Source: an uncultured Gammaproteobacteria bacterium | Lineage (GTDB): Bacteria; Pseudomonadota; Gammaproteobacteria; JABCZS01 | Length of the DNA stretch: 64,000 nucleotides | Reading direction: 5' to 3' | Assembly (NCBI GenBank): GCA_964443025.1 | Contig: CAYUEL010000002.1 | Span: forward strand, 2,916 to 66,915 | Notes under the pieces: generated by a model | Databases searched by the model: none | What the model was told of the DNA's origin: nothing | The model's input: the letters and a program-made list of their open reading frames with translations, nothing else | Part shown: piece after piece, positions 52,990-53,844 of the stretch | Layout of the letters: each line of letters starts with the position of its first letter | Position numbering within the stretch: the first letter of the stretch is position 1 | Translations under genes and position numbers: made by a program

Positions 52990-53844
52990 TTAAGCGCGCG
53001 CCTTGATTAATAACTCTTGTACTTCCTCTTTAAATTGTTGGACATAGACTCCAAAACTTTTTTGTTCTTCATCTCTTAAAGTTAAGACTTCAAAGCCTTC
53101 TTCGGTAACCAAAATGGTATGCTCCCATTGCGCAGATAAGCGGCGATCTTTCGTGATGACCGTCCATTTATCTTTTAAAAGCTTGACTTCTGGACCGCCT
53201 TGATTAATCATGGGCTCAATGGTAAACGTCATCCCTGGTTTTAATTCTACACCTTGACCGGCTTTGCCAAAATGCACAACCTGCGGTGGCTCATGCATCT
53301 TACTCCCAATCCCGTGGCCACAATAATCACGAACGACAGAATAATGATTCGCCTGCGCATGTTGTTGAATAATGTAACCAATGTCACCTAGAGTGTGACC
53401 CGGCTTCACTGCTAAAATACCGCGGTATAAACAGTGTTGCGTCACATCAACTAACCGCTGTGCATGCGACGCCACCTCGCCCACACACACCATAATACTA
53501 CTGTCTCCATAATAACCTTCATGTTTGACGGTAATATCTAAATTCACAATGTCGCCTTTTTTTAAGGGTTTATCTGAAGGCCATCCATGACAAACCACAT
53601 TATTCGGCGATGTATTAACACAATATGGAAAATCATATTGCCCTTTACTACCAGGCGTTGTATGAAGCGTATTGATAATATAATCTTCGCAAAAGGCATT
53701 AACCTCCAATGTTGTCATACCAGGTTTCACTACATGGCTCACCGCCTCCAATACTTGAGAGGTAAACTTGCCAGCAACGCGCATTTTTGCAATTTCTTCT
53801 TTCGTTTTAATCAAGACACTTTCCTTTATTGATGGGTGGATCAT
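52990..53844 (-). CDS. map: Methionine aminopeptidase type I (paralog 2)
   Basis: Collinear with the 39808..40653 protein, about 65-70% identical by eye. It has the same catalytic residues and the shared unusual CHGWP motif. ATG at 53842-53844. Confidence 0.9.
   Translation of the reverse strand: MIHPSIKESVLIKTKEEIAKMRVAGKFTSQVLEAVSHVVKPGMTTLEVNAFCEDYIINTLHTTPGSKGQYDFPYCVNTSPNNVVCHGWPSDKPLKKGDIVNLDITVKHEGYYGDSSIMVCVGEVASHAQRLVDVTQHCLYRGILAVKPGHTLGDIGYIIQQHAQANHYSVVRDYCGHGIGSKMHEPPQVVHFGKAGQGVELKPGMTFTIEPMINQGGPEVKLLKDKWTVITKDRRLSAQWEHTILVTEEGFEVLTLRDEEQKSFGVYVQQFKEEVQELLIKARA

Follow-up and report, generated by a model that had tools for sequence, protein, structure and literature searches.

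The stretch of DNA analysed here, 64,000 nucleotides of a contig from an uncultured gammaproteobacterium (hereafter the window), carries two genes for type I methionine aminopeptidase (MetAP) within one polyketide cluster. The first, map-1, occupies positions 39808–40653 of the minus strand and encodes 281 residues; the second, map-2, lies at 52990–53844 on the same strand and encodes 284. An earlier note on this DNA had described the latter as a second complete MetAP, roughly 65–70% identical to the first, and the comparison bears this out: both genes are intact, and their products align by BLASTP without gaps at 66% identity (182 of 277 positions). Both score far above the cutoff of 171.35 bits for the NCBIfam model of type I MetAP, TIGR00500 (294.5 bits for map-2 and 283.4 bits for map-1), and both match Pfam Peptidase_M24 (PF00557) strongly, at 6e-53 over the full domain for map-2 and at 1e-51 for map-1. 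When aligned with the E. coli enzyme, the two proteins retain all five metal ligands (D97, D108, H171, E204 and E235) together with the catalytic residues H79 and H178. The closest solved structure to map-2 by sequence is MetAP from Pseudomonas aeruginosa (1e-99), and an AlphaFold model of map-2 (pLDDT 95.4) superimposes on that enzyme (4juq) in Foldseek with TM scores of 0.88 and 0.96 and an rmsd of 0.7 Å, reproducing the pita-bread fold. Judged by family score and residues, and for map-2 also by modelled fold, both proteins are predicted to remove initiator methionine. Beyond the fold, residues 258–283 of map-2 (window positions ~52993–53073) form a C-terminal extension that is modelled as a single helix of 26 residues with pLDDT of at least 95; solved bacterial type I MetAPs align with map-2 only to residue ~260. 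The start of map-2 may be a TTG at 53814, which would shorten the protein to 274 residues; this codon has a better Shine-Dalgarno sequence (AAGGAAA) and agrees with the start of the closest homologue.

The cluster spans ~2588–53844 (~51 kb) and consists of two long minus-strand operons with a short plus-strand island between them. Map-1 is the first gene of the core operon and is followed, after a gap of 8 nt, by a polyketide synthase (PKS) of 4110 residues; the remainder of this operon (downstream of map-1, 2588–39799) encodes a second PKS of 4941 residues, a luciferase-like monooxygenase (LLM), a KS-FMO-ACP-TE protein, an AT-ER protein and an ABC exporter. A promoter-like element, TTGTAA-16-TATAAT, lies upstream of map-1 at 40702–40675, in a divergent promoter region. 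Map-2 stands before the accessory string, which runs, in the order that the earlier note had read from the minus strand, map-2, a 1070-aa nucleotidyltransferase-domain protein, P450, P450, HCS, ACP, KS (with its active-site Cys replaced by Ser), ECH and ECH; map-2 is separated from the rest of the string by 95 nt, and the gaps among the later genes measure 8–27 nt. The two MetAP genes do not, as had been supposed, bracket the cluster: map-1 lies inside it, not at an edge, and map-1 and map-2 each head one of the two operons. The statement that map-2 tops its string also needs a small amendment. An open reading frame of 294 codons, orf294 (53913–54797, minus strand), with an AGGAG Shine-Dalgarno sequence and an ATG start, is co-oriented with map-2 and ends 68 nt upstream of it, so that, strictly speaking, another gene precedes map-2 in the string; among the genes linked to biosynthesis, map-2 is still the first in the accessory operon. 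Within the 68-nt gap (53845–53912), sigma-70-like matches occur on the minus strand at 53910–53881 and 53873–53845, but they match by consensus only, and no more of them occur than shuffled sequence would lead one to expect. Promoter and terminator scans likewise returned counts no higher than in shuffled sequence and do not settle the operon boundaries.

The assembly line has the features of a trans-acyltransferase (trans-AT) PKS with HCS-type beta-branching, that is, modules lacking AT domains, a free-standing AT as well as the AT-ER protein, and the full set of HCS, ACP, KS(Cys→Ser), ECH1 and ECH2. It comprises ten KS domains. No condensation or adenylation domain of nonribosomal peptide synthetases (NRPS) was found in the PKS genes.

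The ancestry of the two MetAPs proved more involved than a simple duplication. Both proteins contain the motif CHGWP and a C-terminal EVQELL..AR tail, from which they had been taken to be duplicates of each other and not independent captures. The first of these characters carries no such weight: CHGWP (Trp81) together with Phe65 defines a 17-member subclade that includes, besides map-1 and map-2, extra chromosomal copies in Xenorhabdus, copies from Paludibacterium and the protein P0003, some of them outside any cluster, and the motif is therefore no proof that the two are duplicates of each other. The Xenorhabdus japonica copy, for example, adjoins mutS and a PRiA4-like gene, and the P0003 locus, which lacks a nearby cluster, contains ankyrin, MACPF and cytochrome bd genes. 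By contrast, Leu96, Ile or Val111, Val113 and a tail of the form E-V-[QR]-[ED]-L-L-x-x-A-[RK] occur, among 179 proteins, only in map-1, map-2 and P0002, a metagenomic protein of 279 residues from a gammaproteobacterial bin with 45% G+C, and this exclusive set points to a common origin of the three. The corresponding changes V96L, K111I/V and F113V flank the metal ligands D97 and D108.

The relationship among the three was analysed by neighbour-joining with bootstrap only, on 252 core columns and with 200 bootstraps. P0002 emerged as the closest relative of map-2 (grouped in 185 of 200 bootstraps), whereas map-1 and map-2 were sisters in none of the 200; map-1, map-2, P0002 and P0003 grouped together in 134. 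The contig that carries P0002 is only 2.1 kb long, and its flanks are non-coding. The DNA sequences of map-1 and map-2 agree at 65% of positions overall and at 82% of second codon positions; identity falls to 27% at fourfold sites, which are thus saturated. Their longest identical run is 12 nt, and no gene-conversion tract is seen. With P0002 as the sister of map-2 and synonymous sites saturated, the duplication is ancient and precedes the split from the lineage of P0002. We accordingly rejected the idea of recent tandem or segmental duplicates, and the suggestion of two resistance alleles likewise falls away: the genes are ancient paralogues, kept under purifying selection without gene conversion. 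The proposal that they are duplicates thus survives as an ancient common origin, shared with P0002, and not as a sister relationship.

The pair has also departed unusually far from its relatives. At 142 columns with at least 90% conservation, map-1 deviates at 16 positions, P0002 at 11 and map-2 at 8, against a mean of 2.7 (s.d. 2.7, maximum 11) for 176 relatives. Map-1 is the most divergent member of its clade, and in map-1 alone the otherwise invariant Pro181 is altered (P181L).

Searches with the terminal KS-FMO-ACP-TE protein identified homologous loci, the best of which belongs to the myxobacterium Archangium violaceum (CP069396.1, 7162284–7189393; locus L089). Its genes run PKS, LLM, KS-FMO-ACP-TE, HCS, ACP, KS, ECH, ECH, AT, AT-ER, a Peptidase_M24 protein of 258 residues and P450. 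Identities to the window products are 72% for P450a, 69% for HCS, 66% for LLM, 57% for AT-ER, 56% for ECH, 53% for KS-FMO, 46% for KS(Ser) and 40% for MetAP. The Archangium MetAP sits between AT-ER and the P450a orthologue, contains an insertion and has a different pocket. It is embedded in a homologous cluster while being only 40% identical to map-1 and map-2, which indicates an independent capture. A MetAP of a different lineage, placed between conserved cluster genes in another phylum, is what one would expect if MetAP is the target of the product and each host has recruited its own copy. A MetAP gene lies near P450a or its orthologue in both clusters; between map-2 and P450a, the window has just the 1070-aa gene. 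The family as a whole is widespread; it comprises trans-AT PKS clusters that end with LLM followed by KS-FMO-ACP-TE and that include HCS cassettes (L088–L096), and it is found in myxobacteria-like contigs (66% G+C) and in metagenomic contigs of low G+C.

On its upstream side, beyond map-2 and orf294, the cluster adjoins a conjugative or mobile module (55912–64000, genes on both strands). This comprises a PIN toxin (55912–56340, minus strand) with a small open reading frame upstream, ArdA (57122–57646, minus), a second antirestriction protein (57718–58155, minus), a TraD/TrwB coupling protein (59425–61275, plus) and a TrwC relaxase that begins at 61285 on the plus strand and runs off the window end. 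A DUF6471 gene is also present within the module. Since the module adjoins the cluster, the cluster would be carried by a conjugative plasmid or an integrative element, and the whole ~51-kb cluster is probably mobile. The 64-kb window contains no tRNA gene, and megablast of the conjugative region against plasmids gave no match; TraD is ~31% identical to a TraD of a Legionella plasmid. Taken together, the G+C content of the window (37%), the affinities of the MetAPs, the U-box and effector-like open reading frames described below and the distant TraD match suggest a Legionellales-like, amoeba-associated gammaproteobacterial host. The earlier note had named one finding that would speak against a resistance role, namely that map-2 is the conserved housekeeping copy in a syntenic core-genome context. 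Its surroundings are of another kind: map-2 lies between the cluster and the conjugative module with an effector-like open reading frame beside it, and it shares no synteny with the loci of its nearest homologues, whose contexts also differ from one another.

We consider self-resistance against the polyketide made by this trans-AT cluster to be the best explanation for map-1 and map-2, and a reasonably probable one. The two would be catalytically competent, inhibitor-tolerant copies of the cellular target of the product. With one protected MetAP per operon, activation of either operon would yield a tolerant enzyme along with the biosynthetic enzymes and before them. Both copies would go back to a single accessory MetAP in the Asn70/Trp81 subclade, which is common in the form of extra chromosomal copies in Legionellales-like bacteria, Xenorhabdus and Paludibacterium, and both would have been kept after the ancient duplication. 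Each gene is placed as a target copy should be, within the biosynthetic genes and co-oriented with them, and the assembly line, having no NRPS module, calls for no peptide-processing role. The mobile, non-core setting, the excess of changes at conserved positions and the long retention of both copies also speak for it. The earlier note had seen the resistance reading strengthened by two paralogues bracketing the cluster and co-oriented with it; the bracketing is wrong, and the embedded MetAP of Archangium now provides independent support for the proposal itself.

Several points weigh against this interpretation. That the cluster product inhibits MetAP, and that the host possesses another, sensitive housekeeping MetAP, are steps that we infer, and the shared substitutions beside the metal ligands (V96L, K111I/V and F113V) are candidates only for residues that might give tolerance. 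The more conspicuous differences from the E. coli enzyme in the S1 pocket offer no help, as Ser59, Gln62, Tyr63, Asn70 and Met177 (E. coli numbering) are common to all ~180 nearest homologues and are a subclass trait, not an adaptation specific to the cluster. In the six other members of the cluster family (L088, L090–L096), no MetAP was detected in the readable 10-kb flanks, which are incomplete, and one of them (L095) has a different small open reading frame at the place of the Archangium MetAP. Lastly, large plasmids and chromids carry MetAP genes fairly often (722 records).

Among the alternatives, the one that fares best, though we regard it as unlikely, is that map-1 and map-2 are no more than additional MetAP paralogues of the Asn70/Trp81 type that happen to share a mobile element and whose general advantage, in dosage, metal or substrate preference, has nothing to do with the polyketide. 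Stand-alone extra copies without a cluster do occur, in X. japonica, in metagenome-assembled genomes of Legionellaceae, in L. adelaidensis and at the P0003 locus, MetAP genes reside on many plasmids, and unrelated effector-like genes (orf294, the U-box open reading frame and the 1070-aa protein) are interspersed in this very cluster. Mere co-transport, however, accounts poorly for two copies that each occupy the 5′ end of a biosynthetic operon, one of them 8 nt from a PKS gene, for the 40%-identical MetAP embedded in the homologous Archangium cluster, and for the unusual excess of changes at conserved positions in the pair.

A second possibility, which we consider improbable, is a division of labour in which one copy, probably the less divergent map-2, is the working resistant enzyme, and map-1 has a different role such as sequestration of the inhibitor, sensing or regulation. 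Map-1 deviates at conserved positions more than any of the 176 relatives and changes the invariant Pro181, and the saturated synonymous divergence implies long independent histories of the two genes; a precedent exists in lspA3 and lspA4, for which resistance and regulatory roles have been proposed (PMC9943842). Against such specialization, map-1 has lost no catalytic residue and scores above the equivalog cutoff. Most doubtful of all is a biosynthetic or activating peptidase that acts on the natural product or a precursor, for instance by cleaving an N-terminal aminoacyl group off a pro-drug: enzymes of the M24 family can be co-opted to hydrolyse small molecules, and the C-terminal helix and altered positions 96, 111 and 113 could reflect a new substrate, but no amide-linked amino acid is expected from PKS genes that lack condensation and adenylation domains, both proteins are equivalog-level type I MetAPs with a complete active site, and the Archangium partner, coming from a different MetAP lineage, fits target duplication better than a conserved tailoring enzyme.

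Self-resistance by duplication of a target gene within the cluster is a familiar arrangement. The mupirocin and thiomarinol trans-AT clusters contain a single resistant isoleucyl-tRNA synthetase (mupM and tmlM, respectively), a different target (IleRS) from the one proposed here, and the fungal fumagillin cluster contains a single MetAP2 gene, which represents the same target class but another kingdom and another MetAP type. Among bacterial systems, the nearest parallel is benI in the bengamide (ben) cluster of Myxococcus virescens, a MetAP cited as a self-resistance enzyme (PMC6163206; bioRxiv 10.1101/2022.06.11.495772); as here, a bacterial type I MetAP gene is found inside a PKS-containing cluster, and bengamide inhibits MetAP. 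The ben cluster, however, spans 25 kb, combines PKS with NRPS and has a methoxymalonyl cassette and a single MetAP, whereas the cluster in the window, compared by description, is a pure trans-AT PKS of ~51 kb with a beta-branching cassette, an FMO domain, an LLM, P450s and two MetAPs, and lies on a conjugative element. A MetAP homologue within or operonic with a cluster has also served as a predictor of MetAP-inhibitor production, as for mtpF in the metapeptin cluster (ZYM301) and for 35 MetAP-bearing metagenomic clusters; heterologous expression has validated two of these (bioRxiv 10.1101/2022.06.11.495772). Those clusters, each seen once, are NRPS or single-module PKS systems recovered from soil cosmids, and there is no report that any of them resembles the present trans-AT family or has two copies. 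Two paralogous target copies inside a trans-AT PKS cluster with HCS-type beta-branching are known from the myxovirescin (antibiotic TA) cluster of Myxococcus xanthus, where resistance and regulatory roles have been proposed for lspA3 and lspA4 (PMC9943842); the target there is signal peptidase II, and the copies are not described as heading separate operons.

An embedded MetAP as a self-resistance gene is therefore already established, and so is the presence of two target copies in one trans-AT cluster. What is new here is a previously undescribed family of trans-AT clusters with putative MetAP resistance genes; its member in the window lies on a conjugative element and has an ancient paralogue in each of its two operons. 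A literature search for a connection between MetAP and trans-AT PKS or Legionella clusters returned no paper. Somewhat more speculatively, and with less than even confidence, we propose that this cluster and its Archangium homologue belong to a purely polyketide, P450-tailored family of MetAP inhibitors, distinct from bengamides, metapeptins and fumagillin, that has moved between phyla and recruited a local MetAP each time; in the present case it would reside on a conjugative element in a Legionellales-like, amoeba-associated host, with two anciently diverged MetAPs whose roles possibly differ.

MetAP is a validated antibacterial and anticancer target, and to our knowledge very few classes of natural MetAP inhibitors have been described. 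Two distant lineages that independently embed a MetAP gene provide a strong and testable lead to a new inhibitor scaffold, and one of them, A. violaceum, is an isolate whose complete genome is on record (CP069396.1). The layout of one copy per operon offers a clean system for asking why producers retain two target paralogues. For genome mining, the pair also holds a caution: conspicuous active-site differences from the E. coli enzyme are here traits of a subclade, not signatures of resistance, and it is the few changes confined to the cluster-linked copies that carry information.

Relatives of the two enzymes beyond the Trp81 subclade yielded further observations. A large MetAP subclade (P0001–P0179; L003, L004, L083 and L084), which has Ser59, Gln62, Tyr63, Asn70 and Met177 in its S1 pocket, represents an apparent second copy in non-canonical contexts in Legionellaceae and, as the Trp81 variant, in Xenorhabdus; the Legionellaceae copies often adjoin an HlyD/ABC transporter. 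In related Legionellaceae bins, among the matches listed, Asn70-type MetAPs (67–69% identical) and distant MetAPs (53–58%) occur in different bins. Bala et al. reportedly described, in 2019, a type 1 MetAP class with Asn in place of the S1-pocket Cys and with relaxed substrate specificity, a chromosomal variant not linked to clusters; the Asn70-type homologue clade is possibly the same class. A copy on 'plasmid 12' of L. adelaidensis was considered as a plasmid-borne resistance gene and rejected, its neighbours being the core genes for CTP synthase, kdsA and bamD. A pattern search for GYYGDSS[IV]MVCV in JGI metagenomes gave one match (L087:4321-5214, minus strand; 297 residues, 46% identical), which was also rejected as a cluster-linked relative: it is a SEC-C-motif MetAP in a housekeeping-like context, and its GYYGD.SMMVCVG sequence is convergent. 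Since this protein has Val113, that residue is not unique to cluster-linked proteins across MetAP classes.

The remaining genes of the cluster are arranged as follows. The plus-strand island between the operons (40777–42873) carries a U-box-domain open reading frame (40777–41217), a PPTase gene (41208–41933) and the trans-AT (41911–42873). The beta-branching cassette occupies 42856–47136 on the minus strand, with HCS at 45877–47136, ACP (80 residues) at 45633–45875, KS at 44371–45636 and the two ECH genes at 43599–44378 and 42856–43608; the substituted active site of the KS reads GASASG. The two cytochrome P450 genes follow on the same strand at 47145–49654 (P450a, 48392–49654; P450b, 47145–48383). 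Elsewhere in the wider cluster family, some members encode the LLM and the last PKS as one fused protein (P0184–P0186).

Three open reading frames in and next to the cluster have no evident part in polyketide assembly. The U-box open reading frame, between map-1 and the PPTase gene, encodes 146 residues with an E3 ubiquitin ligase-type domain (E 3e-5) and has an AGGAG Shine-Dalgarno sequence; it is a eukaryote-like gene within a polyketide cluster. The protein encoded by orf294 matches nothing in Pfam or NCBIfam, yet its domain family has 1147 cluster representatives at E ≤ 1e-3, which indicates that orf294 is a real gene. The domain is a unit of ~180 residues that occurs in up to four to five copies per protein and is fused to, or co-occurs with, eukaryote-like Ser/Thr/Tyr kinases, ankyrin repeats and Sel1 repeats; orf294 is probably an effector-like passenger unrelated to biosynthesis. 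For the 1070-aa protein (49682–52894, minus strand), which is encoded between map-2 and the P450 genes, neither the Archangium locus nor any of the other loci retrieved yielded a homologue. It contains a PcnB/CCA-type (PolyA_pol-head) domain at residues ~587–815, a match that falls below the family cutoffs, and the ~590 and ~250 residues on either side are without a family match. Its gene has a G+C content of 31%, compared with ~38% in its neighbours, and looks like an inserted effector-like gene inside the operon.

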